A program made the position numbers and the translations under genes. This document shows positions 1,640-59,575 of a DNA stretch of 64,000 nt, in pieces. Within the stretch, counting starts at the first letter, position 1, and each line of letters opens with the position of its first letter. This DNA is from an uncultured Bifidobacterium sp. GTDB lineage: Bacteria > Verrucomicrobiota > Verrucomicrobiia > Limisphaerales > JADLHS01. The notes beneath the pieces were generated by a model. The model saw nothing but the letters and a program-made list of their open reading frames with translations, had not been told where the DNA came from and ran no database searches. Where the stretch lies: assembly GCA_964553795.1 (NCBI GenBank), contig CAZKMR010000001.1, positions 19,230 through 83,229 on the forward strand, given 5' to 3'.

Positions 1640-4600
1640 ATGAAGCAATCGACGGCACACCGTCGGACACAAAAGCAACGATCATACGCAAGTCGGCCCG
1701 GGCTGCTCGCCTTACTGGCCGCTTGCGGTTTTGGTTTGTTGACGAGCGCCGCTCCGGCCGCCCCGCGCAAAGTGCGAGTGCCCGACCCGGCCGCTGCGCA
1801 GGAACTGTTGTCGCGCGGCGGAAAACTCATCGCCGACTACGAAGGTTTTCAACTGATTGAAGTTGCGGAATCCACCGCAGTGCTGCAACCCACGCGTCGT
1901 CCCACAGTGGAATTGCCGGGCGACACCATCGAGTTGCAATCCGTTCGCATTGATACCCGATCCGCCGAGGCTCGGATGATGCGCAAAAAACGCGGCAGTT
2001 TTGTTGGCCGGCAGTTGCATCTGATTCAGTTTGCCGGGCCCATCCTGCCCGAGTGGCGCGAACGCCTCGAACGATGCGGCGTCAAGGTGATCAATTACGT
2101 GCCGCAAAACGCCTATCTCGTGCAGGGCGACGCGCCAGCGCTGGCGAAACTTCAGGAGTGGGCGGAAGTGACGAGTGCCGTGCAATGGGACGGCGACTTT
2201 GCCTCCGCCTACAAAATTCATCCGGGCGCGCGGGTGCGGAATGAGTTTGGCCAGGCGCAAAAACTCGACACGGACCTGTTTGCGATTCAACTCGTGGTGG
2301 ATGAGTACGAGAACGCGTCAACGTTGGCGTTGCTGGCGCGCGCGCAACTTGAGTCCGTGAAGCGGGACTTTCGCGTGCTGCAGTTTCGCAACCTGATCGT
2401 TCGTTTGCCGCCGGAAGTGCTCAGCGAAATCGCCGCCCAGCCGGATGTGATTTCGATTCAGCCGTACCTCTCTCCCGAGAAACAGGATGAGCGACAGGCG
2501 CAGATCATGGCCGGGCAATTGGCGGGAACTTCACTCATCGGACCTGGCTATCTCGATTGGCTCGCGCAGAAAGGTTTTTCACAGGCGCAATTCGACGCGT
2601 CGGGATTTGTCGTGGATGTCACGGACAGCGGAATTGACAATGGTACCACGACGCCCGGGCATTTCGGGCTCTACACTCACGGCAATCCCGCGTTGGCAAG
2701 TCGCGTGGCCTACAATCGCATCGAAGGCACGGCGCACAGTGGCGGCACAACGACCGGATGCGACGGTCATGGCAATCTCAACGCGCACATTCTCGCGGGC
2801 TATAGCGATCGGACGGGTGGATTTCCGCATACGGACAGCGCGGGTTTTCGGTATGGATTGGGCGTGTGTCCATTCGTGCGCGTCGGCGCGTCGGTGGTGT
2901 TCGATCCATTTCAATTCACCTATCCGAATTATGCCGATTTGCAATCGCGCGCCTACGCGGACGGCGCGCGCATCAGCGCGAACAGTTGGGGCATGACCAA
3001 CAATACTTACACGGTGGATGCGCAGGCGTTTGATGCATTGGTACGCGACGCGCAACCGGACGGAGCGGCCGTGTCCGCGCCGGGTAATCAGGAAATGGTC
3101 ATTGTGTTCGCGGCGGGAAATCGTGGCAGTACGGCCCACACCGTCGGAGCGCCGGGCACCGCCAAGAATGTGATTACCGTTGGTGCTTCGGAGAATGTGC
3201 GTTCGCTCAACACCGCCAGCGGCGGCAAAAGCGCGATGGGCAATGATGGGTGCGGTTACTCGGATGTGAGCGCGGATGCGGCCACGGATTTGGCGACCTT
3301 TTCAAGTCGCGGCCCGTGCAGCGACGGGCGGCAGAAACCCGATTTGGTCGCGCCCGGCTCGCACATCGTGGGTGGTGCGCCTCAATCTGCGCCATCGCTC
3401 GAAGGTTTGGGAAATGCATTGTCCTGCTTCACGGCATCGAGTCTCTGCGTGCAAAGCGGTGGCGGCGTGATGGGTAGCACCAACAATTTCTTTCCGCTAG
3501 GACAACAGTTCTACACGGTTTCTTCGGGCACAAGTCACGCCGCGCCCGCCGTCGCGGGCGCATGCGCATTGTTGCGTCAGTATTTCTTGAACCAGGGTTG
3601 GAACGCGCCCAGTCCGGCGATGACCAAGGCGTTTCTCATGAATTCGACGCGGTTTTTGACCGGTGCGGGTGCGAACGACAATTTATGGTCGCCGGGGCAG
3701 GGCATGGGGGCAGTGAATCTGGGGCGTGCGCTTGATGGCGTGTCGCGCATCTTGCGGGATCAGCGGGAGGCGGACACGTTCACGGCATCCGGTCAATCGC
3801 GGGTGTTCACCGGACGAATTGTCGCTACGAATGAACCGGTGCGCGTGACTGTCGCGTGGACCGATGCTCCGGGCAGCACCACGGGCAATGCATTTAATAA
3901 TGACCTGGATTTAATCGTTGAAGTTGGTGGCAGCACTTATCTCGGCAATCGGTTCAGCGGAGCTTACTCGATTCCCGGCGGCAGTGCTGACGCCCGCAAC
4001 AATGTCGAAAGTGTACTGTTGCCGACGGGAACTTCCGGAGACTTAGTGATCACCATCCTGGCGGCGAATATCAATTCCGATGGCGTTCCGAATTACGGAG
4101 GTGGTCTGGATCAGGATTTCGCACTGGTGGTTTACAACGCTACGAATACGACCGTGCCGCGAATCGCCAGTGCCGGCAGTTCCATCGTCGCCGAGGGTTT
4201 CTTCCCGACGAATAACGCCATTGATCCAGGTGAAATGGTAGTGGTGCAATTGGCTTTGAGAAATACCGGGACGGCCACCGCTACCAATCTCCAGGTCAGT
4301 TTGTTGAATGCCGGGGGAATTAATTCAGCGAGCGGACCGCAATCGTATGGCGATTTGGTTAACGACGGTCAGTCGGTGAGCCGCAGTTTTACTTTTACCG
4401 CTGCATCGGGCGTTTGTGGGAGTGCGATTACGGCGCAATTTCAGCTTCAAGATGACACGGGCGATCTGGGGATGTTGACGTTGGAATGGCCGTTAGGCTT
4501 GCAGACGGTGGAAACCTCGCACTTCACGAATAATACGGCGCTGACGATCCCGGATAGCGGCCCGGCTTCGGTCTATCCGTCCGCAATCAATGTTTCCGGT

Positions 4601-5941: not shown

Positions 5942-6018
5942 CGTGCGGTTATTAGTCGTCGTGTTTGCGACTCGAATTGTTTTTGCAATTCGCTGAGCCG
6001 CCCCACAAAATTGCCCGC

Positions 6019-6393
6019 GTGACTTCGCCTCTGGCAATTCTGTTCTACGAAGATTTGATTCCCGGCAGCCAACTCGTCAATCGGTTGCAGGACCAACGCT
6101 ACCGGGTTCATGTCGCCGGTTCGCCGGAGGAACTGCTTTCAGTGGCAGCCAGCGCCGGGCCCATGTTAATTCTTGCGGATCTGGTTTCCAAACGGACGGA
6201 TGTTTGTGCGCTCATTCAGAAGTTACGAACCGATGCCGCCACGGCACACGTGCCCGTGATCGGTTTTGCGGACGAAGCGGAGTTGGATTTGCAGGCTCGC
6301 GGCAAGGCCGCTGGCGCAGCGTTGGTCGTGTCGGACGCGGCCATCATTCCGCATCTGAACCAGTTCATTGAACGGGCGTTACAGGTGGAATGA
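6019..6393 (+). CDS. Single-domain CheY-like receiver protein (atypical)
   Basis: Receiver-like pattern: AILFYEDL (acidic pair), MLILADL (phospho-Asp position), PVIGFAD. The usual K-P motif is not evident. The start is uncertain: GTG 6019 is preferred over TTG 5965. Confidence 0.5.
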   Translation: MTSPLAILFYEDLIPGSQLVNRLQDQRYRVHVAGSPEELLSVAASAGPMLILADLVSKRTDVCALIQKLRTDAATAHVPVIGFADEAELDLQARGKAAGAALVVSDAAIIPHLNQFIERALQVE

Positions 6394-6424
6394 CCCCCTG
6401 GGACACAGGGGCTCAAACAAAGGC

Positions 6425-6452
6425 TTGACCTCGCAAGAATTGTTTCTATTGT
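6425..6452 (+). promoter_or_regulatory. Putative sigma-70-type promoter of cspA (TTGACC-N16-TATTGT)
   Basis: TTGACC at 6425-6430 and TATTGT at 6447-6452 are separated by a 16-nt spacer. This would give a 5' UTR of roughly 100 nt, typical of cold-shock genes. Confidence 0.35.
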
Positions 6453-6560
6453 CGCATTTGTTGCCGTAATCAGACACCCAATCACGCATAAACCGCACGG
6501 ATGCGATTATTGTTTGCTGTGGTTTGAGGGTGACGATTCGGTGACATTCAGGAGAGAAAT

Positions 6561-6764
6561 ATGGCTAGTGGTAAAGTTAAGTGGTTCGACAATAAGAAAG
6601 GGTTTGGCTTTATCGCCCAGGAGACCGGGCAGGACGTATTCGTGCATCACACGTCCATCATGGGTTCAGGCTTCAAAACCTTGATTGAAGGTGAAGTCGT
6701 AACCTTTGAGGTAATCAGCAGTGACAAAGGTCTCAAAGCCCAAAATGTTCAGCGCAATTTATAG
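6561..6764 (+). CDS. cspA: Cold-shock protein, CspA family
   Basis: 67 aa with RNP1/RNP2 motifs KGFGFI and VFVHH. AGGAGAG lies upstream of the ATG. Confidence 0.95.
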   Translation: MASGKVKWFDNKKGFGFIAQETGQDVFVHHTSIMGSGFKTLIEGEVVTFEVISSDKGLKAQNVQRNL

Positions 6765-6841
6765 CGCCTGAACTTCAGGGTTTGCTGCCAAGCGGGAAAA
6801 ATTGCGTCGCTCTTACCGACGCCCTCCGGTATCTTACACCC

Positions 6842-8038
6842 ATGCCGGAATCTGCCGTCGCACCTGTCACCAGCCTCTATGTTCACGTTCCCTTCTGCGC
6901 GCAGAAGTGCGAATACTGCGCATTTTTTTCCGAGGCTTCCAGTGGCGAGTTGATCAATCGCTACACGCGGGCCCTCCAACGGGAACTGGAATTGGTCGCG
7001 GCAGACTTGTGCCCGCGGACCGTATTTTTTGGCGGCGGTACGCCCTCCTTGCTGAACTTGCGCCAATGGGAAGCCGTGCTGGGGATGATGGAGCGACTGA
7101 ACTTGCTTGGCGCTGAAGAGTTCTCCGTCGAATGCAATCCCGCCACGGTCTCACTCGACAAAGCAAAATTATTGCGCGACTTCGGCGTGAACCGGATTTC
7201 GATGGGGGTGCAATCGCTGGATGAGCAGTTGCTCGAACGCCTCGGACGCGTGCATTCGCGGGAAATGGTTTTCAAGTCATTCGATATTTTGCGTCAGGCC
7301 GGATTCGACAATGTGAACGTGGACCTCATGTTTGCGATCCCTGGTCAAACGATGGCTATCTGGCAAGCCACACTCGATGAAGCACTGGCCTTAGGCAGCG
7401 AACACCTTTCCTGTTACGAAGTCATTTATGAGGAAGACACGCCGTTGTTCGCGCAAATGAATGCGGGAGAGTTCGATGTAGATGAAGATCTCGCGTGCGA
7501 CATGTTTGAAGCACTCGTGGTGCGTTCTGCCGCCGCGGGATTCCACCAATATGAAATCGCCAATTTCGCGCGGGACGTCCGATTAAACGATTTCGCCGCG
7601 GTTGGCCCGGCAACCGTCGATCCGCAAATCCCGCGACTCGCGTGCCAACACAACATCAACTACTGGCGCGGCGGCAATTTTTATGGCCTTGGTCCGAGCG
7701 CGACAGGCTATGTTCGCGGCGTGCGGACGAAGAATTGGTCCAACACACAACTCTACTGCGAGCAACTGGAAAAAGGCCGGCGAGCCATCGAATCGCGCGA
7801 GGAATTTCCGCCTTTGAAACGCGCCGGCGAAACGGCGGCCTTCGGATTGCGGATGAATGCCGGTTGGCCCTACGCCGAATTTCAACGGGTGACGGGTCAT
7901 GACTTGCGTCGAGATTGGGCGGCGGACATGGACTCGCTGGTGCAAAAAGGTTGGGGCATTCGCTCGGCCGACCGGTTTCAGTTGTCGTCGCGCGGATTGC
8001 GTTTTGCAGACGCCGCCGCCGAAGCTTTTCTCCGCTGA
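6842..8038 (+). CDS. hemW: Radical SAM HemN-like protein / heme chaperone HemW
   Basis: LYVHVPFCAQKCEYCAFF (CxxxCxxC radical SAM motif), GGGTPS, and a HemN C-terminal region. Internal ATG 6842 is preferred over the longest ORF start at 6782. Confidence 0.85.
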   Translation: MPESAVAPVTSLYVHVPFCAQKCEYCAFFSEASSGELINRYTRALQRELELVAADLCPRTVFFGGGTPSLLNLRQWEAVLGMMERLNLLGAEEFSVECNPATVSLDKAKLLRDFGVNRISMGVQSLDEQLLERLGRVHSREMVFKSFDILRQAGFDNVNVDLMFAIPGQTMAIWQATLDEALALGSEHLSCYEVIYEEDTPLFAQMNAGEFDVDEDLACDMFEALVVRSAAAGFHQYEIANFARDVRLNDFAAVGPATVDPQIPRLACQHNINYWRGGNFYGLGPSATGYVRGVRTKNWSNTQLYCEQLEKGRRAIESREEFPPLKRAGETAAFGLRMNAGWPYAEFQRVTGHDLRRDWAADMDSLVQKGWGIRSADRFQLSSRGLRFADAAAEAFLR

Positions 8039-8042
8039 AATC

Positions 8043-8741
8043 ATGGAACAACTGCCGCCGCTGACTCCGGCCACGCTTTATCTGGTGGCAACGCCCATTG
8101 GCAATCTCGAAGACATCACGCTTCGGGCGTTGCGCGTCCTGAAGGAATGCGACGTGGTGGCGGCGGAAGACACGCGCCGTTCCGGCCAACTGCTGAAACA
8201 CTTCGGGTTGTCCAAACCGCTGCTGAGTTATTTTCAGTTCAACGAAGCCAAACGGAGCGAAGAAATCCTCGCTCGACTGCAACGCGGCGAAAAAATCGCC
8301 CTCGTCACGGATGCGGGCAGCCCCGGCATCAGCGATCCCGGGGAGCGCATCGTGAAAGCGGCCATTGCGGCGGGTTTCCGGGTGGAAGCCGTGCCTGGCG
8401 CATGCGCTCTGGTGGCGGGTTTGACAGCCAGTGGATTGCCGACGGATGAATTTCACTTCATCGGATTTCTCCCGCACAAATCCGGGCAACGGCGGAATAA
8501 ACTGGAATCGCTCCAATCGGTAGCCGGAACGCTGGTGCTTTACGAATCGCCGTATCGCATCGAGAAACTCCTCGGTGAATTGAGCGAAGTTTATCCGGAA
8601 CGCATCGTCGTGCTCGCGCGGGAATTGACGAAAAAATTCGAGGAATTTCGGCGCGGCAAACCCGCTGAACTTCTCGAGCAGTCCAAGACCCGCAGCTTGA
8701 AAGGCGAATTTGTCGTGCTGATCGCGCCCGCCAGCGACTGA
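8043..8741 (+). CDS. rsmI: 16S rRNA (cytidine1402-2'-O)-methyltransferase
   Basis: LYLVATPIGNLEDITLRALRVLKECDVVAAEDTR and TDAGSPGISDPG are tetrapyrrole-methylase-fold RsmI signatures. The start is ATG 8043. Confidence 0.9.
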   Translation: MEQLPPLTPATLYLVATPIGNLEDITLRALRVLKECDVVAAEDTRRSGQLLKHFGLSKPLLSYFQFNEAKRSEEILARLQRGEKIALVTDAGSPGISDPGERIVKAAIAAGFRVEAVPGACALVAGLTASGLPTDEFHFIGFLPHKSGQRRNKLESLQSVAGTLVLYESPYRIEKLLGELSEVYPERIVVLARELTKKFEEFRRGKPAELLEQSKTRSLKGEFVVLIAPASD

Positions 8742-8759
8742 GCACGAAAACTTGTGGCG

Positions 8760-9467
8760 CTAGATATTTTTGCCATGCCCCTGCGCCACGAACTTGCGGA
8801 TGACGCGCATTTCTTCTTCGCCGGCAATCGTGTGCGGCTTCATGAATTCGTGCCACTCGATATTCAGCCCCGCGCCCTTTGCCTGCTGAACTTGTTGCCG
8901 AGTGCGCGCAAACGGCACGAGGGGATCATGAGTGCCGTGCGTCACCAGAAAACGCTGCTGTTTCGCGAGTGGGGTCAGCGCCGTCAACACTTGCTCGGCG
9001 TCGCAAATCCACCCGCTGATGCCGACCAGTCCGGCAAACTGATGTGGATAGTGCAAGCCGACGTCGATGGTCATCAGGCAACCTTGCGAGAAGCCGCCGA
9101 GTGTAGTTGTTTCGGTGGGAAAACCCTTGGCGCGTTGCGCGTCGAGCAGTGCAAACAGAAGTTGCCGACTGCGTTTGACAGTGCCGACGGTGTCGCCGTC
9201 AATGTCGAACCACGAGAAGCCGCCGTAGTAATCGTCCGGCGCATTCACGAGCAGATAATTCAGCCACGGCAGCCGCATCGCCTCCGGCAGCCAGCGATAA
9301 CCTTCGATGCTGTCGCCCAAGCCGTGCAGCATAATCATTAGATGTTTCGACCCGGAATCAGTCGCGGGCAATAATTCACTGTGAAGCATAAAGTCAGAGG
9401 CCAGAAAATCGTAATCTTGAATCACACCGCGCGAGTCATTCGGCATTCGGCGGGGCGGCCAATTCAC
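8760..9467 (-). CDS. Phospholipase/carboxylesterase-family alpha/beta hydrolase
   Basis: LMIMLHGLGDS and a GFSQG nucleophile elbow, with a C-terminal HG..D region. The true start may be the internal Met at 9389, because the longest ORF overlaps the upstream gene end. Confidence 0.75.
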   Translation of the reverse strand: MNWPPRRMPNDSRGVIQDYDFLASDFMLHSELLPATDSGSKHLMIMLHGLGDSIEGYRWLPEAMRLPWLNYLLVNAPDDYYGGFSWFDIDGDTVGTVKRSRQLLFALLDAQRAKGFPTETTTLGGFSQGCLMTIDVGLHYPHQFAGLVGISGWICDAEQVLTALTPLAKQQRFLVTHGTHDPLVPFARTRQQVQQAKGAGLNIEWHEFMKPHTIAGEEEMRVIRKFVAQGHGKNI

Positions 9468-10278
9468 GGATGGCGGTTTGGATTTGTTGTAATAACTCAG
9501 CGGAGGGACGCAACTCTGCGAGCGTTGTTTGGTCTGAGCGCGCCCCGGCGTCCAGCCACCAATACACCACGGCTAGTTGCGTTTCGCTCAATTGCGGTTT
9601 GCCGGCGGGCGGCATGTGGTCGTCGTCATCCTCCGGCAGCCGCAGGCGATTTCCGAGCAAACTGTATTCAGCGCCGGGCGGATCCAGCGGCGGCCCGGAA
9701 TCCCCGCCTTTGACCAGATGCGCGGCGGTGTCGAGTCGCAAACCGCCTTTGTTTTTCTGCGCCCCGTGACAACTGACGCAATACTCGTCGAAGAGCGGTT
9801 GAATTACCGTCGCGTAAACCGGCTGCGCGGCGAGTTGCTCGGTGGTTGCCGGTTGAGCCGGCTTTGCTTTGGATTTCGGCCAGGCGAGAAAATCGCTGCC
9901 ATGCGTCAGCGATCCGCCAAAATGGCTGGCGACGCCGAGCAACAGGATGGTGACCAACAAACTGCGCCGATAGGCCGTGAACCACCCGCGTTGGCGAATA
10001 ATCCACAACAGACCGACCGCGCCAGCCACCGCCGTGCCGAGCCAGCGATGCCAAAAAAGTGCTTGCGCGTCGTATTTGCCATCGGCCGCGAGAAACCACC
10101 CGCAGACCACGCTGGCTAACGCCGCCGGAATGCTGAGCAGGAGAATGACGCGATTTGCGGTGGCCAACTCCTTCCAGTTCGGGCGCAACGCCAGCCATTC
10201 CAGCGCGCCTAATAGCAATAAGAAGCCAATCGGCAAATGAACAAATAACGGATGAAACTTTCCAAGATATTCAATCAT
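9436..10278 (-). CDS. Integral membrane protein with a C-terminal c-type cytochrome domain (Planctomycete-type)
   Basis: Several N-terminal TM helices (FVHLPIGFLLLLGALEWL...) followed by the heme-binding motif CVSCHGAQKNKGGLRLD. Confidence 0.7.
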   Translation of the reverse strand: MIEYLGKFHPLFVHLPIGFLLLLGALEWLALRPNWKELATANRVILLLSIPAALASVVCGWFLAADGKYDAQALFWHRWLGTAVAGAVGLLWIIRQRGWFTAYRRSLLVTILLLGVASHFGGSLTHGSDFLAWPKSKAKPAQPATTEQLAAQPVYATVIQPLFDEYCVSCHGAQKNKGGLRLDTAAHLVKGGDSGPPLDPPGAEYSLLGNRLRLPEDDDDHMPPAGKPQLSETQLAVVYWWLDAGARSDQTTLAELRPSAELLQQIQTAIRELAAPPNAE

Positions 10279-48797: not shown

Positions 48798-49526
48798 ATG
48801 AGCGAACCTAGCGAATTCAGCGACAGCGGTCAGCCGATTTATCGGCATACGGAGCGAAAGCGGGAATTTGAGTTCGCTGCCGGCGACGAACAAAGCATCG
48901 AACTTATTTCGGATCACATCGAGAAACATCTCGGCACTCCGGCGACGGTGTTTCACGAGTTGATTTCGGATCTCGTCCATATTGACGTTCATATCATAGC
49001 GCCCACTGAGGAGCGGCCGTTTTATTCGCTGATCACCTCGGGGATGAGCGACAAACCGATGAATGCCCCGGAAGGAGCCGAGGACTTGCGGTACGCCGAA
49101 TTGATGATTTGTCTTCCGCCTGACTGGCCGATGACGCAAGAAGAATGGAAGAAAGACCAGGATAGTTTCTGGCCGATCCAGTCGCTGAAATTTCTCGCCC
49201 GGTTTCCGCATGAATACGATACCTGGCTTTGCCTTGATCACACCGTCCCGAATGGCGACCCGCCCGAACCATTCGGAAACACCGAATTCTGTTGCGCGAT
49301 GCTGGGCGGCTGCGCCACAGCGCCGCAGGAGTTCTGGCAACTGAAGGTCAGTGAGGATAAAACCATCAACTTCTTCGGGTTATACTTCCTTTATCGCGAA
49401 GAGATGGATTTGAAGATGAAGAAAGGTGCGGAGGCGCTTTGGGAGCTGTTGGAGAAAAGCAACGTGACCGAATTGCTGGACGTCTCGCGCAAGAATACGG
49501 CGAAAAAACGATTTGGAATATTTTAG
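48798..49526 (+). CDS. SUFU-like (suppressor-of-fused family) domain protein
   Basis: HIDVHIIAPTEERPFYSLITSGMSDKPM..AELMICLPPDWP...WPIQSLKFLARFPHEY matches my memory of the bacterial SUFU/Imm-SUFU domain pattern. Confidence 0.6.
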   Translation: MSEPSEFSDSGQPIYRHTERKREFEFAAGDEQSIELISDHIEKHLGTPATVFHELISDLVHIDVHIIAPTEERPFYSLITSGMSDKPMNAPEGAEDLRYAELMICLPPDWPMTQEEWKKDQDSFWPIQSLKFLARFPHEYDTWLCLDHTVPNGDPPEPFGNTEFCCAMLGGCATAPQEFWQLKVSEDKTINFFGLYFLYREEMDLKMKKGAEALWELLEKSNVTELLDVSRKNTAKKRFGIF

Positions 49527-49534
49527 TGCCTCGG

Positions 49535-50992
49535 ATGCCTCTTCCCGATTTGATCGAAATCATCCCGCTCGACGAGCCCGTGCGCGCGGAGATCACCGTG
49601 CCTGGTTCGAAGAGCATCACGAATCGCGCGCTCATTCTCGCGGCGCTGGCGGATGGTGAAGTGACGTTGACGGGCGCGCTGTGGAGTGAGGATACGCAGG
49701 TGATGACCGAGGCGTTGCGAACGCTCGGATTCGACGTGCGCGTGGAGAATGATCCGGCGGAGTTTTGTAATCGGACGATTACGGTCAAAGGGCAGGGCGG
49801 ACGGATTCCCAAAGCAGGCACGGCGGAAAAGCCGCTGGAGCTGTTTGTGGGCAATGCGGGTACAGCAGCGCGGTTTCTGGCGGCGCTGGTTTGTTTGGGC
49901 AACGGCGTGTATCGGTTGAGCGGCGTGCCGCGGATGCACGAACGTCCGCAGGCGGAATTGTTCAAGGCGTTGCGCGAACTTGGCTATCGCGTGGAGACAC
50001 CGAACGAAAAGTTGCCGGCAGTGATTTTTGGCGAAGCGCCGGAGCGCGGCTCTGTGAGCCGCAGCGATTCGGCCACGCCGGAGGCTTCCATTGATTCTGG
50101 ACGTGAAAAAGCTGACGAGAGCGCTGCGGGTCGCAGACCCGCGCTCCGGAAGCGCAGTTGCACCGTCAGCATTTCGGAAAGCTCGCAATTTGCCTCGGCG
50201 CTGTTGCTCGCGGCGAAGCATGGTGGATGGGAAGTGAAGATTGCCGGTGATGATGACGAGGAAGCGCCGTATGTAGTAATGACCCAACGATTGATCGAAT
50301 CGTTTCCCAAACGTGGAGGTCGTTTTCAGATTGAGCCGGATGCATCCAGCGGCAGTTATTTTTGGGGCGCGGGCTGGTTGGTTACAGTGAAATGGTGGCT
50401 GGGTGCTCCGGTTGAGGAACTAGGTCCGGAGGGTTCGCCGATTTGGGTAAAGGCGTGGCCGAAATCTGGCTGGCAAATTGATGCGGCATTTCCCGATTTC
50501 CAGCCTTGGCCGGAAAGTATTTCGCGTGAAGGTCAGTTGGCTGACAGCATCATGACTGCGGTGGTGTTGGTCGCAGACCGGGAAAGTGCAGTTGATTGTT
50601 ATCTTGAGCCTCGTGCGGAGATGAAATTCACCGAACTTGGCCGGTTGCGCGTGCAGGAATGTGAGCGCGTCGTTGCTTTGCGCACGGAGTTGACCAAGTG
50701 CGGAGCAAAAGTGGTTGAAGAAGGCGACACGTTGACGGTTTACCCCTCCGATCTGCACGGCGCGGAGATCGAGACCTACAACGATCATCGCATGGCCATG
50801 TGTTTTGCGATTCTGGGATTGAAAGTGCCGGGGATAAAAATCAAGAATCCCGCGTGCGTGAAGAAGACGTTCCCCAATTTTTTCCAGAAACTCGCCGCGC
50901 CGCCACCCAATGGATTGGGCGTGGAGATTTGGGAAATTAAGGACGCCCAACGGACACGGAAATTGGAAGGTGAAGATTTGTTTGCGGACTGA
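49535..50992 (+). CDS. aroA: 3-phosphoshikimate 1-carboxyvinyltransferase (EPSP synthase) with an in-frame repeat-derived insert
   Basis: PGSKSITNRALILAALA, LFVGNAGTAARFL, MHERP, SSQFASALLL, DHRMAMCFAILGL and VKKTFPNFF. The start is ATG 49535. Confidence 0.9.
   Translation: MPLPDLIEIIPLDEPVRAEITVPGSKSITNRALILAALADGEVTLTGALWSEDTQVMTEALRTLGFDVRVENDPAEFCNRTITVKGQGGRIPKAGTAEKPLELFVGNAGTAARFLAALVCLGNGVYRLSGVPRMHERPQAELFKALRELGYRVETPNEKLPAVIFGEAPERGSVSRSDSATPEASIDSGREKADESAAGRRPALRKRSCTVSISESSQFASALLLAAKHGGWEVKIAGDDDEEAPYVVMTQRLIESFPKRGGRFQIEPDASSGSYFWGAGWLVTVKWWLGAPVEELGPEGSPIWVKAWPKSGWQIDAAFPDFQPWPESISREGQLADSIMTAVVLVADRESAVDCYLEPRAEMKFTELGRLRVQECERVVALRTELTKCGAKVVEEGDTLTVYPSDLHGAEIETYNDHRMAMCFAILGLKVPGIKIKNPACVKKTFPNFFQKLAAPPPNGLGVEIWEIKDAQRTRKLEGEDLFAD
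50040..50148. repeat. Nested-hairpin inverted repeat (GGAGCG-frame family) inside the aroA ORF
   Basis: CGGAGCGCGG-CTC-TGT-GAG-CCGCAGCG (left) ... CGCTGCGG-GTC-GCA-GAC-CCGCGCTCCG (right). The arms are near-identical to those at 22297-22370. Confidence 0.7.
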
Positions 50993-52399: not shown

Positions 52400-52458
52400 G
52401 GCCTCGGCGAGTAAACGGGTGTGATTAAAAGTGGGTGAGGCGCGGCGCAGATCATTGT

Positions 52459-52568
52459 GGAGCGCGGACGGTCTCCGTCCGCAGCGCGCCGCCAGCACGA
52501 CCCGCAACGAATTTGTCCGAGCCACCTTTTCCTGTCCCTGCGCTGCGAGCGGGGACCGCTCGCGCTCC
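52459..52568. repeat. Nested-hairpin inverted repeat (GGAGCG-frame family), intergenic
   Basis: GGAGCGCGG-ACGG-TCT-CCGT-CCGCAGCG ... CGCTGCG-AGCGG-GGA-CCGCT-CGCGCTCC. The outer frame matches the aroA and 22297 copies, but the inner stems differ. Confidence 0.6.
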
Positions 52569-52663
52569 AGCAGATCCCGACACTCACTTTTAATTGCATC
52601 CCACCACAACAGTCTTCAAGGAAATGTATTTTCCAATCGGATGGCGGTTCGTAAGCTACGCCG

Positions 52664-53866
52664 GTGTCTGAAGCGAAAGCACAATCCAATCTAGTCGAGC
52701 CAAGCGTGTCTCCGTCCCGTTCGCTGCCAATCTTGGGCATTGTCGGTGGCGGACAACTTGCCAAGATGATTGCGCAAGCGGCGCGGCAACTCGGCTGCGA
52801 CGTTGCGGTGCTCGAACGCCAGGCTCATAGCCCGGCAGCGGACCTCACCACGCATCACATCGTCGGCGATTGGGATGATCCCGAAACCTTGATTGAGCTG
52901 GGGAAAGTTTCCGATGTCGTGACGTTGGAAAACGAATTTGTCTCCGCAGATAGTCTGGCGGCGCTGGAGCGGGCCGGGCATGCGTTGTGGCCCACGGCGG
53001 CGAACATTCGCGTGGTGCAGGACAAGCTGACGCAGAAGCAGGCGTTCGTGGACGCCGGTCTGCCCGTGCCGCGTTTCATGGCGGTGGCGAATCAGGCTGA
53101 GGTGGCCGCTGCCGCTGAAAAGCTTGGCTGGCCGTTGCTGCTGAAGAAGCGGCGTTGCGGTTATGACGGCAAAGGCAATTTTACCGTGCGCTCGACGGCG
53201 GACATTGAAACCGCGTGGCAGCAACTCGGCGGTGACAGCAATGAGCTTTATGTCGAGGAGTTCTGCCGGTTCACGGCGGAACTAGCCATTATGATCACGC
53301 GCGGGCGCGACGGCACGAGCGTGAGTTATCCCCTCGTGGAAACGATTCAGCGTGATCACATTTGTCACGTCGTCAAAGCACCGGCGGCAGTTTCGCCGGG
53401 CATTGCCGCAATTGCGGCGGACATTGCGCAACGCGCGGTCGCTGCGGTGAACGGCGTTGGCAGCGTGGGCGTGGAAATGTTTCTCACCGCCGACCGCAAC
53501 ATTTTGATCAATGAAATGGCCCCGCGCGTGCACAACTCAGGTCATTACACCATTGAAGCGTGCGCGTGTTCGCAGTTTGAAAATCACGTTCGGGCGGTGA
53601 TGGGATGGCCGTTGGGTTCGCCGGCACTGCGCGCGCCCGCGGCGGTGATGGTGAATTTGCTGGGTGCGGCGAAAGGCTCGGGCAATCCGCATGGAATGAG
53701 CGCCGCGTTACGAGTTGCCGGTGCCAGCGTTCACGTTTACGGTAAAACTTCCAGTTCGCCCGGGCGCAAGATGGGACACATCACCGCGTTGGGCGAGACG
53801 ATGGAACAGGCGTTGGAAAGCGCACAGGCCGCGACGGCAGCGATTCGTTTTGGAGGAACAAATTGA
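52664..53866 (+). CDS. purK: N5-carboxyaminoimidazole ribonucleotide synthase
   Basis: [13 protein letters not shown], an ATP-grasp fold ([21 protein letters not shown]) and [12 protein letters not shown]. The start is uncertain: GTG 52664 or GTG 52706. Confidence 0.85.
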
Positions 53867-54363
53867 AAGCGAAAGCAACTCAACCACTGGTCGGCATCAT
53901 CATGGGCAGCGATTCGGATTGGCCGACGATGAAAGCGGCCGCTGATATCTGCGAGCAGTTTGGCGTGCCGCACGAGGTGCGCGTGGTTTCGGCGCATCGC
54001 ACACCGGATGACATGGCGCGCTATGGTCGCACGGCGCACAAACGTGGTTTGCGCGTGGTGATTGCAGGCGCGGGTGGCGCGGCGCATTTACCGGGAATGA
54101 TTGCGAGCCACACGCCGTTGCCGGTGGTCGGAGTGCCGGTGGAGAGCAAGGCGCTGAAGGGCATGGACTCGTTGTTATCCATTGCGCAAATGCCGGCTGG
54201 CGTCCCGGTGGCGACAGTGGCGATTGGTAACGGTCGCAACGCAGGGCTGTTGGCGGTGGAGATTCTCGGCACGAGCGACGCGGCGTTGCAGAAAAAACTG
54301 CTGGCGTACAAAGCGCAGATGGCAAAGGAATCGCGGGCCAAGAATAAAAATCTGGCGCGTTAA
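53863..54363 (+). CDS. purE: N5-CAIR mutase
   Basis: [21 protein letters not shown] and [17 protein letters not shown] start overlaps the purK stop. Confidence 0.93.
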
Positions 54364-54365
54364 AC

Positions 54366-55355
54366 ATGGGCTTCTTCGATGCCATCCAAGCGAATCTGCT
54401 GACACCGGCAGTGTTGTTCTTTGCGCTCGGGTGCATTGCCGCTCTGGTGAAAAGCGATCTGCGGTTTCCCGAGCCGTTGTACATCACGCTGACGATCTAT
54501 CTGCTGGTGGCCATTGGATTCAAGGGCGGGGTGGCGATTTCGGAAGCCGGCCTGCGGGCCGTTTGGTTGCCATCGGTGGCGGCGTTGATTATCGGGACAT
54601 TGATTCCACTGTGGACGTATCCGTTGCTTCGCTACGTCGGAAAATTGTCGCCGGTAGATGCTGCGGCGATCGGCGGACACTACGGCTCAGTGAGTGCGGT
54701 GACGTTCATAGCCGCGACAAATTTTCTCAAGTCCGTTTCCGAGCCGCATGAGAATTATGCGTCGGCGTTTCTCGCGGTGATGGAATCGCCGGCGATAGTC
54801 ATCGCGGTGCTGCTGGGCAAGATGGCGACGCGCGACGCGAAGTCCGATTTCAAGGAAACGATGAAAGTGGCGCTGCATGAATCCATGCTGGGGCGCAGCG
54901 TGGTGTTGCTGGTCGGCGCGCTGATCATCGGATTTTTGTGTGGCAAACGCGGGGCGGAAACCACGGCGGGCTTGTTTGTGACGCCGTTCCAAGGCGTGCT
55001 CGCGTTGTTTCTTCTGGAGATGGGCACAATCGCCGCGCGACGTTTTCAGGATTTGCGCAAGGTCGGTTTGTTCCTGCTGGCGTTCGGCGTCGTGATGCCG
55101 CTAATTCACGGCATGATCGGCATCTGGCTCGGGAAAACGGTGGGCTTGAGTCTGGGCGGCGCGACGTTGTTTGGCGTGTTGACGGCGAGTGCGTCGTACA
55201 TAGCTGCTCCGGCGGCGATGCGGTTGTCGTTGCCGGAAGCGAATCCCACGCTGTACCTGACGGCGGCGTTGGCGATTACGTTCCCGTTCAACATCGCATT
55301 TGGCATTCCGATTTATTACGCGGTGGCGAAATGGCTGTTTGGAGGAAGCGTATGA
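54366..55355 (+). CDS. sbtA: SbtA-like sodium-dependent bicarbonate transporter family permease
   Basis: Polytopic protein of about 330 aa starting MGFFDAIQANLLTPAVLFFALGCIAALVKSDLRFPE, matching the Sbt_1/DUF897 pattern as I remember it. It starts 2 nt after purE. Confidence 0.75.
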   Translation: MGFFDAIQANLLTPAVLFFALGCIAALVKSDLRFPEPLYITLTIYLLVAIGFKGGVAISEAGLRAVWLPSVAALIIGTLIPLWTYPLLRYVGKLSPVDAAAIGGHYGSVSAVTFIAATNFLKSVSEPHENYASAFLAVMESPAIVIAVLLGKMATRDAKSDFKETMKVALHESMLGRSVVLLVGALIIGFLCGKRGAETTAGLFVTPFQGVLALFLLEMGTIAARRFQDLRKVGLFLLAFGVVMPLIHGMIGIWLGKTVGLSLGGATLFGVLTASASYIAAPAAMRLSLPEANPTLYLTAALAITFPFNIAFGIPIYYAVAKWLFGGSV

Positions 55356-55654
55356 CCATGTATCCGATGAAACTGGTGACGATCATTTGTGAAGCGCTGG
55401 CGCGGGAGCCGCTCACGCGATTTCTCGACAAGTCTGGGGCACACGGCTACACGTTGTTTCGCGTCGAAGGCACGGGCGCAAAAGGCTCGCGCGTCGCGGA
55501 TATGGAGGAGTTTGCCAACATCCAGGTGGAAGTCGTCGTCACGCCGGAAGTGGCGGAGCGATTGTTGGAGCAGCTGCAGAAGGAATTCTTCGCGCGCTTT
55601 GCCATGATCGCCTTCGAATCCGACGTGCGCGTGTTGCGGTCCAACAAATTCTAA
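55352..55654 (+). CDS. sbtB: PII-like regulator SbtB
   Basis: 100 aa. KLVTIICEALAREPLTRFLDKSGAHGYTLFRVEGTGAKGSR aligns by eye with cyanobacterial SbtB (KLVIVTE...ESGAKGYTV..GGKGSR). An ATGA overlap joins it to sbtA. Confidence 0.75.
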   Translation: MTMYPMKLVTIICEALAREPLTRFLDKSGAHGYTLFRVEGTGAKGSRVADMEEFANIQVEVVVTPEVAERLLEQLQKEFFARFAMIAFESDVRVLRSNKF

Positions 55655-55675
55655 CCGCCCACTTCAATCCCTACC

Positions 55676-56335
55676 GTGCAAAAGCTCATCGACGGAGTTC
55701 ACAAGTTTCGTAACGACGAGTTCGGCAATTACCGGAAACTGTTTCGCAAGCTGTCGCAGGAAGGGCAGAATCCGCACACGCTATTCATCACCTGTTCGGA
55801 TTCCCGCGTGTTGGCGGAGTTGATTACGCAGAGCAAGCCCGGGGATTTGTTTGTGGTGAAAAATGTCGGCAACATTGTCCCACCGGCGGAATCCACCGGC
55901 AGCACCAACTCGACCGCGGCGGCCATTGAATTCGCCGTCGAATCCCTGAAGGTCAGTGACATCGTAGTGTGCGGCCACACGCAATGCGGGGCGATGGAGG
56001 CGCTGCTGCGCGGACTGAAAGAGCCGGAGAGCCAGCCGCATTTGCGCGATTGGTTGTCACTGGCGTTGCCGGTGCGCCAGACGATTCAGACGCAATACAC
56101 CCACCTGAAAAGTCATGCGGAGCAAACCACCGCGGCGGGGCAGGAGAATGTCCTGTTCGCGCTCGATAACCTGCACAGTTACGCCTGCGTCCAACGCCGG
56201 TTGAACGACGGTTCCCTGCGCTTGCACGGCTGGTTCTTCAAGATCGCGACGGCGGAACTCTTTGCCTTTGATCCGGAGACGAAACAGTTCCTGCCGCTGG
56301 GAACAGATCTGGCCGCGCAAAGCCAATCCGATTGA
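55676..56335 (+). CDS. can: Beta-class carbonic anhydrase
   Basis: Zinc ligand motifs CSDSRV and GHTQCGAM. GTG start 21 nt after sbtB. Confidence 0.85.
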   Translation: MQKLIDGVHKFRNDEFGNYRKLFRKLSQEGQNPHTLFITCSDSRVLAELITQSKPGDLFVVKNVGNIVPPAESTGSTNSTAAAIEFAVESLKVSDIVVCGHTQCGAMEALLRGLKEPESQPHLRDWLSLALPVRQTIQTQYTHLKSHAEQTTAAGQENVLFALDNLHSYACVQRRLNDGSLRLHGWFFKIATAELFAFDPETKQFLPLGTDLAAQSQSD

Positions 56336-56397
56336 GGGAAGACTTTTTCGGAGCGAGCGAGGATTCATTCAGGGTTTGCATGGCTGTATGCTGTCGG

Positions 56398-56413
56398 CTT
56401 TACAACTGTAAAG
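56398..56413. promoter_or_regulatory. BlaI/CopY-type operator dyad CTTTACA-AC-TGTAAAG
   Basis: A perfect 7-bp inverted repeat containing TACAnnTGTA, 62 nt upstream of the blaI-like ATG. Confidence 0.5.
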
Positions 56414-56428
56414 ATTGCGCTTGACCGG

Positions 56429-56444
56429 CTTTACGGTTGTAGAG
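56429..56444. promoter_or_regulatory. Second, imperfect operator dyad CTTTAC-GGTT-GTAGAG
   Basis: It shares the CGGCTTTAC left half with the first dyad and sits 31 nt downstream of it. Confidence 0.4.
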
Positions 56445-56474
56445 ATGATGCGCCCGTCATCACCCAATTTTCAC

Positions 56475-56879
56475 ATGCCGCAAAAGCCGATTGAACTTAC
56501 CGAAGCCGAATGGACTGTCATCAAAGCCGTTTGGGAAGGCGAACCCTGCACCGCGCCCGCCATTCAGGAGAAGTTGTTTGCCGAAACGGCGTGGACTTAT
56601 TCCACGGTGCGGACGCTGATGGATCGCATGGTGACGAAAGGGTTGCTGGCGGCGGAGAAGGAAAAGAACGTGACGTTGTATCGCTCGGTGGTGACGCGCG
56701 CGCAGGCGCAGCGCGGGGAGCTGCTCTACGCGTTGAAACATGCGTTCAATGGCGCGCTCACGCCGATGGTGCAATGCCTGCTCGATACGAAGGAGATTAC
56801 CAGGTCTGAACTGGACCAACTCAAGCAACTCATCGCCGCGCACGAAAAGGGTCGCGGTAAAAGTGGGAGGAAATCATGA
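56475..56879 (+). CDS. BlaI/MecI/CopY-family transcriptional repressor
   Basis: Winged-helix pattern LTEAEWTVIKAVWE...WTYSTVRTLMDRMVTKGLL..EKEKNVTLYRSVV. An ATGA overlap joins it to the sensor gene. Confidence 0.85.
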   Translation: MPQKPIELTEAEWTVIKAVWEGEPCTAPAIQEKLFAETAWTYSTVRTLMDRMVTKGLLAAEKEKNVTLYRSVVTRAQAQRGELLYALKHAFNGALTPMVQCLLDTKEITRSELDQLKQLIAAHEKGRGKSGRKS

Positions 56880-59575
56880 ATGGCCTGTTGCGCTGGCTGG
56901 CGTCACCCGAATGGGCGCAACTCATCAGCGCATTTTTGCATTCGCTTTGGCTGGGAGCAGTCGTGGCGGTTGGTTTGGCGGTTGTGCTGCGGCGCGCCGT
57001 TAATCCCGTAATCCGCTATCTTTGCAGTCTGGCGGCTTTGGGACTGTTGCTGGGGTCTGGAGTGTTGGCGTGGGCGATTTTGAGCGCGCCGACTGTTCCA
57101 GTGGCAAATTCACCGCTGGTTGAGATAGTCGAGTCCGATCTTCCGAGTTCGGCCAGTGCGCCGACATCGTTTGATGTCGCCGATGAAGTGGTCGTAGTGG
57201 GACGGATGACTGTCCCCGAAGCGCCAACGCAATGGACAGCGTGGCTGGCGGGAATTTGGTTGCTGGGAGCTGCGGTGATGTTGCTGCGGGCGGGAATCAA
57301 GGTCGCGGGCGCTGAGCAACTGCGACGTTCCTGTCAGCCGCTGGCAGACGAACAAATGGCCGCATTGGTGGCCGAGGCGTGTCGCGCGGTAGGCCTGGCG
57401 CGACGCATCCGTGTGGCAGTCACGGAACGGCTGACTTCTCCGGCAGTAGTGGGGATAATTGTGCCGACCTTAATCCTGCCGCTATCGGTCTTCACGACAT
57501 TGACGCCGACCCAGATTCAGTTTGTCTTGCTGCACGAACTCGCGCACATCCGGCGCGGTGATTATCTCGCCAATTTATTCCAACTCTTTGCGGAAGCGTT
57601 GTTGTTCTTCAATCCTGCGGTGTGGTGGATCAGTCATCAAATCCGGCGCGAGCGCGAAGCGTGTTGCGATGCCCTGGCGATCCAATTGAGCGGCGCGCCG
57701 ACGGATTATGCAAAAACGTTAGTACAGGTGGCGGAAAACATTTTGCAATCTGCCCCCGCCGCAGCGCCTGCTTTTGGCGGCTACGGACAAGAAAACTCAT
57801 CGCTGGCGGATCGGGTGCAGCGATTGCTCGTTCCCGGCTATCGACCGACTCTGCACCTTACTTGGCGCGCAATGCTCGGCTCATTATTCGTGGGTGCCGT
57901 GATACTGGTTGCTTCCGCATACGGCACTCGAAACACGGTGGGGGCAATGATCTCATCTGCTCAACCGACAACAAATTATCCGCCGGTGTCAGACGTTTCA
58001 CTGATCACTGCTGCTGAAGGGAAACCTCGAACTCCTTCAAACGTGAACACAACCATACCCGTTCTGCGTGATTTACCACTCCTCAGCGGCCTGTTTACCA
58101 GCGAATCGCAAGTTCAACGCGAGGACGGTAAAGATGCATTCGGCATGAATGATTTGATGGTTGATAGCCAACAACGAAGCCACCAGCAATTTTGGTATCG
58201 GTCTGGCGATACCAATGTGCCGAAGCAATCCACCAACAGCGCCCCCACCGAGCCTTTGGCTACGCGCATGTTCAAAGTTGATATGGGGCAGATTTACTCC
58301 GCCTTAGGGTTGGCTTTGGATGGAACAAACAGCTTGAGTGCAACTAACTTGCATAATGCGGTTCGCGACTACTTCAGCAAGGCTGGAGTCAATCTAGATC
58401 CCCTGTTGGGCAAGAGCACCTACTTCAATTTGAGTCGGGGTGAATTGTGGGTTCGAGCTACACGCGAAGAACTGGACCTGGTTGAAGATATATTGCATTC
58501 GATGGCAGTTGCGACCGTGCGCGAATCCGAGATTTCAAATTCCGATACGCTCAAATCCCGAACTGAACATTCTGGTGGTCGCGCCATCGAATCGCTCCAA
58601 AACCAAGTCCCAACGAAAGCGTTAGTAACGCGAACTTTCAAAGCCAGTCCAGAGGCTTTAGCCGAAACTCTTGCGATAAGCGGATTTGAAACTGCGGATA
58701 ACGGGAAAACTAATCTTGCAGAAAGCTTGCGCGCTTTTCTGAAATCGATGGGCGTAGATCTTTCACTGCCCAAGTCTATGTACTATAACGAACGAGCGGG
58801 AGGACTTTTTGTTCGGGCGACGGCGGAAGATCTGGGCGTGATTGAGCAATTGCTTGAAGTCGTGAATCAACAATCGCAGCAAGTGAACATCAAGGCAATG
58901 TTTGTGGAAGTACCCGCGGATAAGTATGACGCGACAGAAATAGACCGCTTGCTGTTTTCCAATTTGAATAAAGCTGCAGGTGACAATGAACGTCAGTCGT
59001 TTGGCATTTTGACGGAGAGCGAATTTGCAAAGGTGCTCAAGAATCTCAGAGAGAGATTTCACGCTGAAATCGTGGCTGCTCCTCAGGTCACGACGTTGAG
59101 CGGCAGGCAGGCGCAAATCCAGATGGCAGACATCAAAACCATATTCACCGGCATGACGGCGGTAGTGACAAATGGGGTGACCAACTACGTCTATGAAACC
59201 GAAACCAGGCCTTTTGGACCAGTATTGGATTTGTTGCCGACGGTTTCTGGCGATGGAACTGCCGTTCAAATGACTGTAATTCCAAGCCTGACAGAGTTTG
59301 GGGGGTACACAAAATCAGGAGATAACCCATACTACGACTCCAATTATTATGACGCACTGCCAGTTCCCGGTGCCAATTCAGCAACGCTTCCGTTGCCGGT
59401 TTTTCGTGTTCGCAAGATGACGACGGTAACAACGGTTAAAGATGGTCAGACGTTGGTATTCGGAGGTTATGAAGCTAAGCCCCCTCTTCTTGGTTTATTC
59501 AAACGTGTGCGTTTCACCTTTGTAACGCCAACAATCCTTGATCCCGCAGGCAATCGTTTGAATCCCCCAAAATAA
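56876..59575 (+). CDS. BlaR1-type M56 sensor metalloprotease fused to two secretin-N-like repeats and a secretin core domain
   Basis: The N-terminus has TM helices and an HELAHIRRGDY (HExxH) M56 domain, followed by a further TM helix. Residues from about 462 form two repeats of about 85 aa (TRMFKV...WVRATREELDLVEDIL / TRTFKA...FVRATAEDLGVIEQLL). Residues 670-899 are secretin-like (VNIKAMFVEV..., APQVTTLSGRQAQIQ, VTTVKDGQTLVFGG, PLLGLF). Confidence 0.8.
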   Translation: MNGLLRWLASPEWAQLISAFLHSLWLGAVVAVGLAVVLRRAVNPVIRYLCSLAALGLLLGSGVLAWAILSAPTVPVANSPLVEIVESDLPSSASAPTSFDVADEVVVVGRMTVPEAPTQWTAWLAGIWLLGAAVMLLRAGIKVAGAEQLRRSCQPLADEQMAALVAEACRAVGLARRIRVAVTERLTSPAVVGIIVPTLILPLSVFTTLTPTQIQFVLLHELAHIRRGDYLANLFQLFAEALLFFNPAVWWISHQIRREREACCDALAIQLSGAPTDYAKTLVQVAENILQSAPAAAPAFGGYGQENSSLADRVQRLLVPGYRPTLHLTWRAMLGSLFVGAVILVASAYGTRNTVGAMISSAQPTTNYPPVSDVSLITAAEGKPRTPSNVNTTIPVLRDLPLLSGLFTSESQVQREDGKDAFGMNDLMVDSQQRSHQQFWYRSGDTNVPKQSTNSAPTEPLATRMFKVDMGQIYSALGLALDGTNSLSATNLHNAVRDYFSKAGVNLDPLLGKSTYFNLSRGELWVRATREELDLVEDILHSMAVATVRESEISNSDTLKSRTEHSGGRAIESLQNQVPTKALVTRTFKASPEALAETLAISGFETADNGKTNLAESLRAFLKSMGVDLSLPKSMYYNERAGGLFVRATAEDLGVIEQLLEVVNQQSQQVNIKAMFVEVPADKYDATEIDRLLFSNLNKAAGDNERQSFGILTESEFAKVLKNLRERFHAEIVAAPQVTTLSGRQAQIQMADIKTIFTGMTAVVTNGVTNYVYETETRPFGPVLDLLPTVSGDGTAVQMTVIPSLTEFGGYTKSGDNPYYDSNYYDALPVPGANSATLPLPVFRVRKMTTVTTVKDGQTLVFGGYEAKPPLLGLFKRVRFTFVTPTILDPAGNRLNPPK

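Follow-up and report, generated by a model that had tools for sequence, protein, structure and literature searches.

SbtA, a high-affinity bicarbonate transporter, and its PII-like partner SbtB have been studied almost only within the CO2-concentrating mechanism (CCM) of cyanobacteria, and what they do in the numerous heterotrophs possessing them has hardly been characterised. In Synechocystis they are encoded by slr1512/slr1513 (structures 7CYE and 7EGK). The Na+ site of Synechocystis SbtA involves Ser322, and docked bicarbonate is contacted by Ser114, Tyr140, Ser324, and Ser327; SbtB binds adenine nucleotides including AMP and inserts its T-loop into SbtA (PMC8352866). Here we analysed a locus in which members of the same two families, in the same order, lie downstream of the purine biosynthesis genes purK and purE and upstream of a gene for a beta-carbonic anhydrase. 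The locus is found at positions 52664-56335 (+ strand) of a stretch of 64,000 nt, in the following called the window, which was taken from assembly GCA_964553795.1 (contig CAZKMR010000001.1, positions 19,230-83,229, forward). In contrast to the cyanobacterial sbtAB genes, which belong to a low-CO2 regulon serving the carboxysome, the pair described here is encoded with purKE and a cytosolic carbonic anhydrase.

A comparable gene combination is that of the E. coli cyn operon, in which, as Guilloton et al. reportedly described in 1993, the carbonic anhydrase gene cynT is found together with the cyanase gene cynS. There, likewise, a CynT/CcaA-type beta-carbonic anhydrase shares an operon with a bicarbonate-consuming enzyme and prevents the depletion of its substrate. 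At our locus the consumer would be PurK, a biosynthetic housekeeping enzyme, instead of cyanase, and a transporter and a PII-like regulator are added. PurK uses ATP and bicarbonate, and purine synthesis without PurK is CO2-dependent (PMC10880623). Heterotrophs growing in air need a carbonic anhydrase or a transporter of dissolved inorganic carbon, because biosynthetic carboxylases including PurK use bicarbonate (PMC10880623, PMC12862769, bioRxiv 10.64898/2026.09.08.750065). In Staphylococcus aureus and Bacillus subtilis, which are also non-autotrophs, inorganic carbon is supplied by MpsAB/DAB, on which biosynthetic carboxylations, that of PurK among them, depend at atmospheric CO2 (PMC12862769; bioRxiv 10.64898/2026.09.08.750065). 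This system consists of unrelated families (a PF00361-type membrane subunit and DabA/PF10070, compared with Sbt_1 and PII), and a fusion to purine operons is not reported in either of these two sources. For mammalian cells, a parallel is cited in PMC10912719, in which mTORC1 raises the bicarbonate transporter SLC4A7 for nucleotide synthesis.

To our locus the preliminary description, made from the sequence of the window, had assigned the role of a bicarbonate supply module for purine synthesis, and recurrence of the linkage in related genomes bears directly on this proposal. We surveyed metagenome contigs and exact-protein look-ups. Genomic contexts were obtained from exact-protein look-ups of seven homologues (that of the window and six picked solely by contig extent), from one GTDB locus, and from 80 metagenome loci found with an alignment of 45 SbtA sequences. 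After loci with at least 90% identical SbtA and the same context had been dropped, a non-redundant set of 83 loci remained, which are referred to by L numbers. Linked genes were detected by tblastn with the five proteins of the window.

Counting the window, purE and/or purK are located within 2 kb of sbtA at 13 of the 83 loci. If the window is excluded, 12 of 82 loci have purE or purK within 2.5 kb, compared with a chance expectation of 0.05-0.15 (Poisson P <= 2e-19; the model assumes 301 kb of flanking sequence within 2.5 kb, a single-copy gene, and a genome of 2-6 Mb). Within the clade sharing at least 60% identity, 7 of 15 loci including the window are linked, that is, 6 of the 14 other close Verrucomicrobial relatives; the remaining linked loci include representatives of four other phyla. 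The same search with tyrA, aroA, cmk, plsC, rho, and blaI as control queries gave, outside the contig identical to ours (L001), just one weak plsC-like match, 6 kb away.

The linked loci show about nine different gene orders. The order of the window without the carbonic anhydrase gene, purK-purE-sbtA-sbtB, is found in L005, L007, L014, and L019, whereas L009 has the carbonic anhydrase gene in front of the same four genes. L013 is arranged as carbonic anhydrase-sbtA-sbtB-purK, L086 as sbtA-sbtB-purE-purK, L047 (Peptococcaceae bacterium BRH_c8a) as purE-purK-sbtA, L081 (Candidatus Margulisiibacteriota) as purE-purK-carbonic anhydrase-sbtA-sbtB, and L067 (a Shewanella species) as sbtA-purE. In L072 (Thermus aquaticus) purE-purK are divergent from sbtA-sbtB, and in L032 the arrangement is convergent. 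By exact-sequence cluster look-ups, which were used for the taxonomy of the linked loci, L013 and L014 belong to the Verrucomicrobiota. In total the linkage occurs in at least five phyla (lineages of Verrucomicrobiota, Thermus, Shewanella, Peptococcaceae, and Candidatus Margulisiibacteriota). At those Verrucomicrobial loci where sbtA comes right after purE, the gap between the two is short: 2 nt in the window, 3 nt in both L014 and L005, 6 nt in L009, and less than about 40 nt in L007 and L019. Four of the 13 loci linked to purEK also have a carbonic anhydrase gene. Such repeated assembly of an association, in five phyla or more, is the hallmark of selection for co-regulation, and a selected functional link of sbtAB to purEK is quite probable. 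The recurrence also suggests that in bacteria without photosynthesis purine synthesis is among the chief consumers of imported bicarbonate.

The genes of the window are tightly arranged. All five open reading frames (ORFs) of the preliminary description were recovered on the + strand (Table 1), and recomputation of the four junctions reproduced its values: -4 (purK/purE, TTGA), +2 (purE/sbtA), -4 (sbtA/sbtB, ATGA), and +21 nt (sbtB/carbonic anhydrase). The start of purK is ambiguous (52664 or 52706); the later start, which gives 386 aa, corresponds to the gene as called independently on L001, the identical contig. Stop and start codons overlap at two of the four junctions, and a Shine-Dalgarno sequence, GGAGGA, is situated 6 nt upstream of both the TTG of purE and the ATG of sbtB. 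The overlaps and the placement of GGAGGA are consistent with translational coupling within the cluster. Consensus scans, limited to promoters of the sigma-70 type, while little is known of promoters in Verrucomicrobiota, revealed neither a sigma-70-like promoter nor an intrinsic-terminator-like site at any of the four junctions. This includes the one between purE and sbtA, where such a signal would have spoken against a common transcript and where there is room for only 2 nt. Promoter- or terminator-like matches within the coding regions are not more numerous than expected from shuffled sequences. Judged from the gene layout, purK-purE-sbtA-sbtB-can very probably constitutes a single five-gene operon, and co-transcription of the five genes is predicted. 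The unit most likely ends after the carbonic anhydrase gene, since a promoter-like site precedes the next gene, which codes for a BlaI-family repressor.

Besides signals between purE and sbtA and a linkage not shared by relatives, the preliminary description had named a different transporter family as a finding that would overturn it; none of the three was obtained. The permease scores 391.5 bits against PF05982 (Sbt_1; cut-off 27, E 3.5e-117), with model positions 1-307 out of 308 covered, and matches Synechocystis SbtA (7CYE_A) with E 3.8e-33 and about 30% identity, so that its assignment to the SbtA family stands. The alignment with the latter extends over both inverted-repeat halves (residues 8-155 and 170-325 of the query). 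Of the residues at the Na+ and docked bicarbonate sites, Ser110, Ser275, and Ser277 correspond to Ser114, Ser322, and Ser324 of Synechocystis SbtA. Across the 45 diverse members of the family that were aligned, Ser110 and Ser277 do not vary and Ser275 hardly varies, and the SxS and GSVS crossover motifs, which are rich in serine, are invariant or nearly invariant as well. The protein differs from Synechocystis SbtA in its length (329 compared with 374 aa) and in the absence of the disordered cytoplasmic loop at about residues 166-212 (the Ser166-Trp212 region, alignment with PMC8352866). It belongs to a large family of proteins of about 320 aa; we counted 431 cluster representatives with E<=1e-30, a number that rises to 1519 when E<=1e-10 is allowed. 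Judged from its cyanobacterial counterpart it would import bicarbonate and is probably Na+-coupled.

The product of the following gene matches P-II (PF00543) with E 1.3e-19. Its nearest solved relative is the structural-genomics protein TTHA0516 of Thermus thermophilus (2CZ4, E 4.8e-19), a PII-like protein for which our literature search found no published function. Cyanobacterial SbtB structures match with E 1.6e-7 (Cyanobium 6MM2) and 3e-7 (Synechocystis 6WUE), the range extending to 4e-7, which is significant homology and bears out the identification as an SbtB-like protein; the carboxysome-associated PII-like protein 5D4N is also among the solved relatives. The motif on which this identification had originally been based, KLV...SGA.GYT...G.KGSR, holds in part: KLV and GA.GYT are common to cyanobacterial SbtB, and the G.KGSR part is not identical. 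A T-loop is present, although 4 residues shorter than in cyanobacterial SbtB. The C-terminal CGPxGC redox-sensitive R-loop is absent; the protein ends with ...VRVLRSNKF and has no Cys pair there. Because this motif is conserved only in some SbtB homologues (PMC8352866), its absence does not exclude membership of the SbtB family. The protein presumably senses adenine nucleotides. A P-II ORF directly follows sbtA at 42 or more of the 71 loci with sufficient downstream sequence.

An SbtB nearly identical to TTHA0516 is encoded in L072, where it follows the SbtA gene that is divergent from purE-purK, in contrast to the co-directional arrangement in the window. A fusion of SbtA and SbtB at this locus was considered and ruled out, as there is an in-frame stop between the two genes. 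The starts of purE and sbtA in L072 are separated by about 47 nt only, which implies overlapping or leaderless promoters. Other particularities of sbtA loci were seen in L027 and L031, each with two sbtA paralogues (in tandem in L031) and an SbtB gene after the second copy only, and in L006, where a fragment of purE lies on the opposite strand directly 5' of sbtA. L006 otherwise has the same SbtA and SbtB as L005, and the fragment is probably an assembly artefact.

The fifth gene codes for a beta-carbonic anhydrase, as had been proposed (Pro_CA, PF00484, E 1.1e-47). Its best solved match is the beta-carboxysomal carbonic anhydrase CcaA of Synechocystis (5SWC, E 5.3e-50 over residues 1-206), with which the zinc-site motifs CSDSR and HTQCG (HxxC) are aligned and kept. 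Compared with CcaA, the enzyme with its 219 aa has about the size of the catalytic core and lacks the carboxysome context. It is predicted to be cytoplasmic because a signal peptide is absent. The identities of PurK and PurE could also be confirmed, by equivalog-level matches above curated cut-offs. PurK scores 417 bits against NF004679 (cut-off 326) and 406 bits against TIGR01161 and has the Pfam preATP-grasp, ATP-grasp, and PurK_C domains. PurE scores 226 bits against TIGR01162 (cut-off 150), matches PF00731 with E 1e-67, and contains the SAHRTP motif. The pair thus consists of PurK and a class I PurE, encoded by adjacent genes with a 4-nt overlap.

Which other genes accompany sbtA was assessed with Pfam for the ORFs that share its strand and lie no more than about 2.3 kb away, 148 of them upstream and 132 downstream; in this census the counts for AIRC are underestimates. 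P-II was found in 42 ORFs, Pro_CA in 12, PurK in 9, bacterial microcompartment (BMC) shell proteins in 6 (in a few SbtA loci only), TerC in 4, and LysR in 3. Further enzymes that use bicarbonate are also represented: among the loci L012-L091 there are two ORFs for phosphoenolpyruvate (PEP) carboxylase (PEPcase_2 once, PEPcase once) and one for an acetyl-CoA carboxylase carboxyltransferase subunit. After P-II/SbtB and carbonic anhydrase, no family occurs more often than PurK among the co-directional neighbours of sbtA.

From the gene content the following picture can be drawn, which is the reading we favour and consider reasonably probable: the operon would bring the import of bicarbonate, its nucleotide-responsive gate, and the hydration of CO2 under joint expression with the step of purine synthesis that needs bicarbonate. 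PurK would carboxylate aminoimidazole ribonucleotide with ATP and bicarbonate, and PurE would rearrange the product. The SbtA-family permease would bring in bicarbonate, probably coupled to Na+ as in cyanobacterial SbtA, and would be gated by the T-loop of the PII-like SbtB according to the adenine-nucleotide status. The cytoplasmic beta-carbonic anhydrase would equilibrate CO2 and bicarbonate, and metabolic CO2 would also be captured as bicarbonate. Since the co-expressed carbonic anhydrase is cytosolic, bicarbonate would be held near equilibrium with net carbon added, and no large out-of-equilibrium pool for a carboxysome, as in a cyanobacterial CCM, would be formed. Co-transcription would couple the supply of inorganic carbon to the expression of the bicarbonate-dependent purine step. 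At low ambient CO2 purine synthesis would be sustained in this way, and other carboxylations incidentally; it is here that we infer the physiological benefit of the operon.

Several points weigh against this reading. Six of the 12 other linked loci come from a single Verrucomicrobial clade and do not count as independent; given the common ancestry of these cases, independent linkage events number closer to seven to nine than to thirteen. Eight of the 14 close relatives have sbtAB without purKE, beside TerC, ion-channel, PGPGW, or unrelated genes. Only three of the five named residues of the Na+/bicarbonate site are conserved in the permease, Tyr140 and Ser327 being replaced by Leu136 and Ala280, at an overall identity of about 30%. 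If bicarbonate were pumped above equilibrium, a cytosolic carbonic anhydrase co-expressed with the importer would let the carbon taken up escape as CO2. Finally, the Sbt-like protein SO_3758 of Shewanella oneidensis affects formate tolerance, for which the authors favour efflux as explanation (PMC12093963).

The loci without purKE raise the question whether sbtAB, with or without the carbonic anhydrase gene, is a mobile two- or three-gene cassette for general inorganic-carbon or pH/Na+ homeostasis that has no special tie to purines. Such a cassette would serve acetyl-CoA carboxylase, carbamoyl-phosphate synthetase, and PEP/pyruvate carboxylase as well as PurK, and its position behind purKE would reflect growth-linked co-expression. 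In the close relatives lacking purKE, sbtAB follow TerC, Na_Ca_ex, Ion_trans, and PGPGW membrane genes as well as an S30AE-like gene, and a LysR gene is often divergent from them; at other loci genes for PEP carboxylase or acetyl-CoA carboxylase subunits adjoin sbtA; and the cluster of the window itself sits in a long one-strand housekeeping array. It also fits this explanation that in bacteria deficient in carbonic anhydrase chemical complementation with one end product is, as a rule, hard to achieve (bioRxiv 10.64898/2026.09.08.750065). However, PurK is the top metabolic neighbour of sbtA, its 9 co-directional ORFs comparing with 1-2 for any other carboxylase, and the variety of gene orders across five phyla is the pattern expected from selection for co-regulation, not from incidental placement. 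We regard a general cassette as possible, though rather doubtful. What these loci do show is that, although the interpretation of the preliminary description is supported, a module dedicated to purine synthesis would be too strong a wording: the linkage supports a supply for purine carboxylation, but sbtAB often occur without purKE, and have PEP carboxylase or acetyl-CoA carboxylase neighbours elsewhere. The sbtAB pair acts as a portable cassette for which purine synthesis is a frequent, not an obligatory, client.

Another doubt concerns the permease itself, which could be a bicarbonate exporter or a carrier of small anions such as formate, the link to purines then being one of one-carbon or anion balance. 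A point mutation and heterologous expression of SO_3758 both alter formate tolerance (PMC12093963), two of the four ligands of docked bicarbonate in Synechocystis SbtA are not conserved here, and a measured bicarbonate uptake for a homologue from a non-cyanobacterial heterotroph was not found in the literature surveyed. Yet carbonic anhydrase ranks second among the neighbours of sbtA and is also present at four of the 13 purEK-linked loci, which points to CO2/bicarbonate chemistry, and carboxysome shell genes flank some SbtA homologues. SbtA-family transporters of autotrophic Proteobacteria are reported to be active on bicarbonate (PMC10880623), and the crossover motifs are retained throughout, or nearly throughout, the family. 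An exporter or formate carrier is, in our view, improbable. Even less credible is that the adjacency is meaningless, with genome compaction having placed sbtAB-can behind purKE and a promoter inside purE driving them. The restriction of our scans to sigma-70-type promoters leaves some room for this explanation, but it does not account for twelve purE/purK neighbours where chance predicts far fewer than one, for the control genes, which gave none save one weak and distant match, or for the codon overlap at two of the four junctions.

Table 1. Positions of the features in the window and at related loci.
Sequence	Feature	Position	Strand	Description	Basis
Window	purK	52664..53866	+	N5-carboxyaminoimidazole ribonucleotide (N5-CAIR) synthetase, ATP- and bicarbonate-dependent step	NF004679, TIGR01161, Pfam domains
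Window	purE	53863..54363	+	class I N5-CAIR mutase, TTG start	TIGR01162, PF00731
Window	sbtA	54366..55355	+	Sbt_1 permease, 329 aa, putative Na+-dependent bicarbonate transporter	PF05982
Window	sbtB	55352..55654	+	SbtB-like PII-family protein, 100 aa, ATG start	PF00543
Window	can	55676..56335	+	CynT/CcaA-type beta-carbonic anhydrase, 219 aa, GTG start	PF00484
Window	nested long inverted repeat	52417..52601	.	about 185 nt, within the 264-nt plsC-purK intergenic region, filling most of the gap	
Window	inverted-repeat arms, 21 nt	52417-52437/52581-52601			
Window	inverted-repeat arms, 30 nt	52458-52487/52540-52569			
Window	SUFU-family gene	48798-49526		suppressor of fused-like, between tyrA and aroA	
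Window	aroA, longest ORF	49439-50992			
Window	TACA..TGTA repeats	~56397-56444		two copies	
Window	promoter-like site	56421-56449		5' of the Penicillinase_R (BlaI-family) repressor gene	
Window	Penicillinase_R gene and the ORF after it	56415-59575		second ORF of 899 aa, BlaR1 peptidase M56 and C-terminal Secretin domain	
L003	S30AE...sbtAB cluster	5552-8981			
L005	S30AE...sbtAB cluster	5607-8981			
L009	S30AE...sbtAB cluster	5127-8990			
L010	S30AE...sbtAB cluster	2531-8981			
L006	purE fragment	3-140	opposite to sbtA		
L027	two sbtA paralogues	5485-6453, 8534-9469			
L031	two sbtA paralogues	3692-4645, 4715-5674			
L072	purE-sbtA intergenic region	5954-6000			

In the window the cluster is preceded by a long array of housekeeping genes on the same strand (pfk, cdsA, dxr, rseP, ispG, tyrA, aroA, cmk, plsC). 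As stated in the preliminary description, no RuBisCO or carboxysome genes are nearby: none was found among the annotated neighbours, which cover about 39-62 kb of the window, nor at the purEK-linked loci of the relatives. Permease homologues of named origin that share about 70% identity with it come from Verrucomicrobiota. The organism is likely a heterotroph, as had been suggested, a window of 64 kb being too small for proof of this.

Between plsC and purK an inverted repeat is located (Table 1), the RNA of which is predicted to fold with -117.6 kcal/mol (z = -4.0 compared with shuffles). It may act as terminator for the array upstream or have a regulatory function for the operon. That it is a repeated mobile element is unsupported, the sequence being unique in the window. 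A riboswitch or other known RNA was not detected either, as Rfam gave nothing above the gathering score in the window and five related loci; the lone match with E<1 was a spurious miRNA.

Downstream of the cluster, the Penicillinase_R gene is followed by a BlaR1-type gene whose product is unusual in that it is fused to a Secretin domain. The promoter-like site in front of the repressor gene is overlapped by a pair of GGCTTTAC-N4-TGTA repeats 30 nt apart, which we take to resemble an operator of the BlaI/MecI type. Further upstream in the window, the longest ORF for aroA overlaps the SUFU-family gene by 88 nt, and the true start of aroA is probably further downstream.

In several Verrucomicrobial relatives sbtAB are the last genes of a longer same-strand cluster that opens with a small S30AE gene (hibernation-factor-like; Table 1) and variably holds Zn_peptidase_2, Na_Ca_ex, TerC, Ion_trans, PGPGW, carbonic anhydrase, and purKE genes. 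The upstream part of this cluster is not present in the window. A LysR regulator gene is divergent in L010 and situated further upstream in L003 and L005. Possibly the cluster from S30AE to sbtAB forms a regulon for CO2 or ion stress.

The protein families described here were known before, as was the need of heterotrophs for inorganic carbon in anabolism, which is illustrated by MpsAB/DAB and by the logic of CynT and cyanase. The novelty seems to lie in the finding that SbtAB, alone or together with carbonic anhydrase, are recurrently fused to purEK in operons outside the cyanobacteria. Our literature search, whose coverage is incomplete so that a prior description is possible, did not find this linkage described.

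Candidatus Margulisiibacteriota are a non-photosynthetic sister group of the Cyanobacteria. The purE-purK-carbonic anhydrase-sbtA-sbtB cluster in this group and the CcaA-like carbonic anhydrase of the Verrucomicrobiota are compatible with, and no proof of, a more far-reaching idea: SbtA, SbtB, and a CcaA-like beta-carbonic anhydrase could be an ancient heterotrophic module that supplied bicarbonate for biosynthesis, with PurK as preferred client and SbtB closing a feedback loop, and that was later recruited to the cyanobacterial CCM. We consider this speculation unlikely. If it were true, the end products of purine synthesis would gate the import of a substrate of their own pathway via the adenine-nucleotide-sensing SbtB.

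The linkage of sbtA to purEK and carbonic anhydrase, being independent of gene order, suggests a testable role for these proteins, the provision of bicarbonate for purine carboxylation at low CO2, and with Thermus and Shewanella there are tractable organisms that carry it. It also provides support from the genomic context that the short non-cyanobacterial Sbt_1 proteins of about 320 aa handle bicarbonate, which is of relevance for moving compact bicarbonate pumps into plants or production strains. For the SbtB family, the linkage to purine synthesis suggests a new physiological reading of nucleotide sensing.

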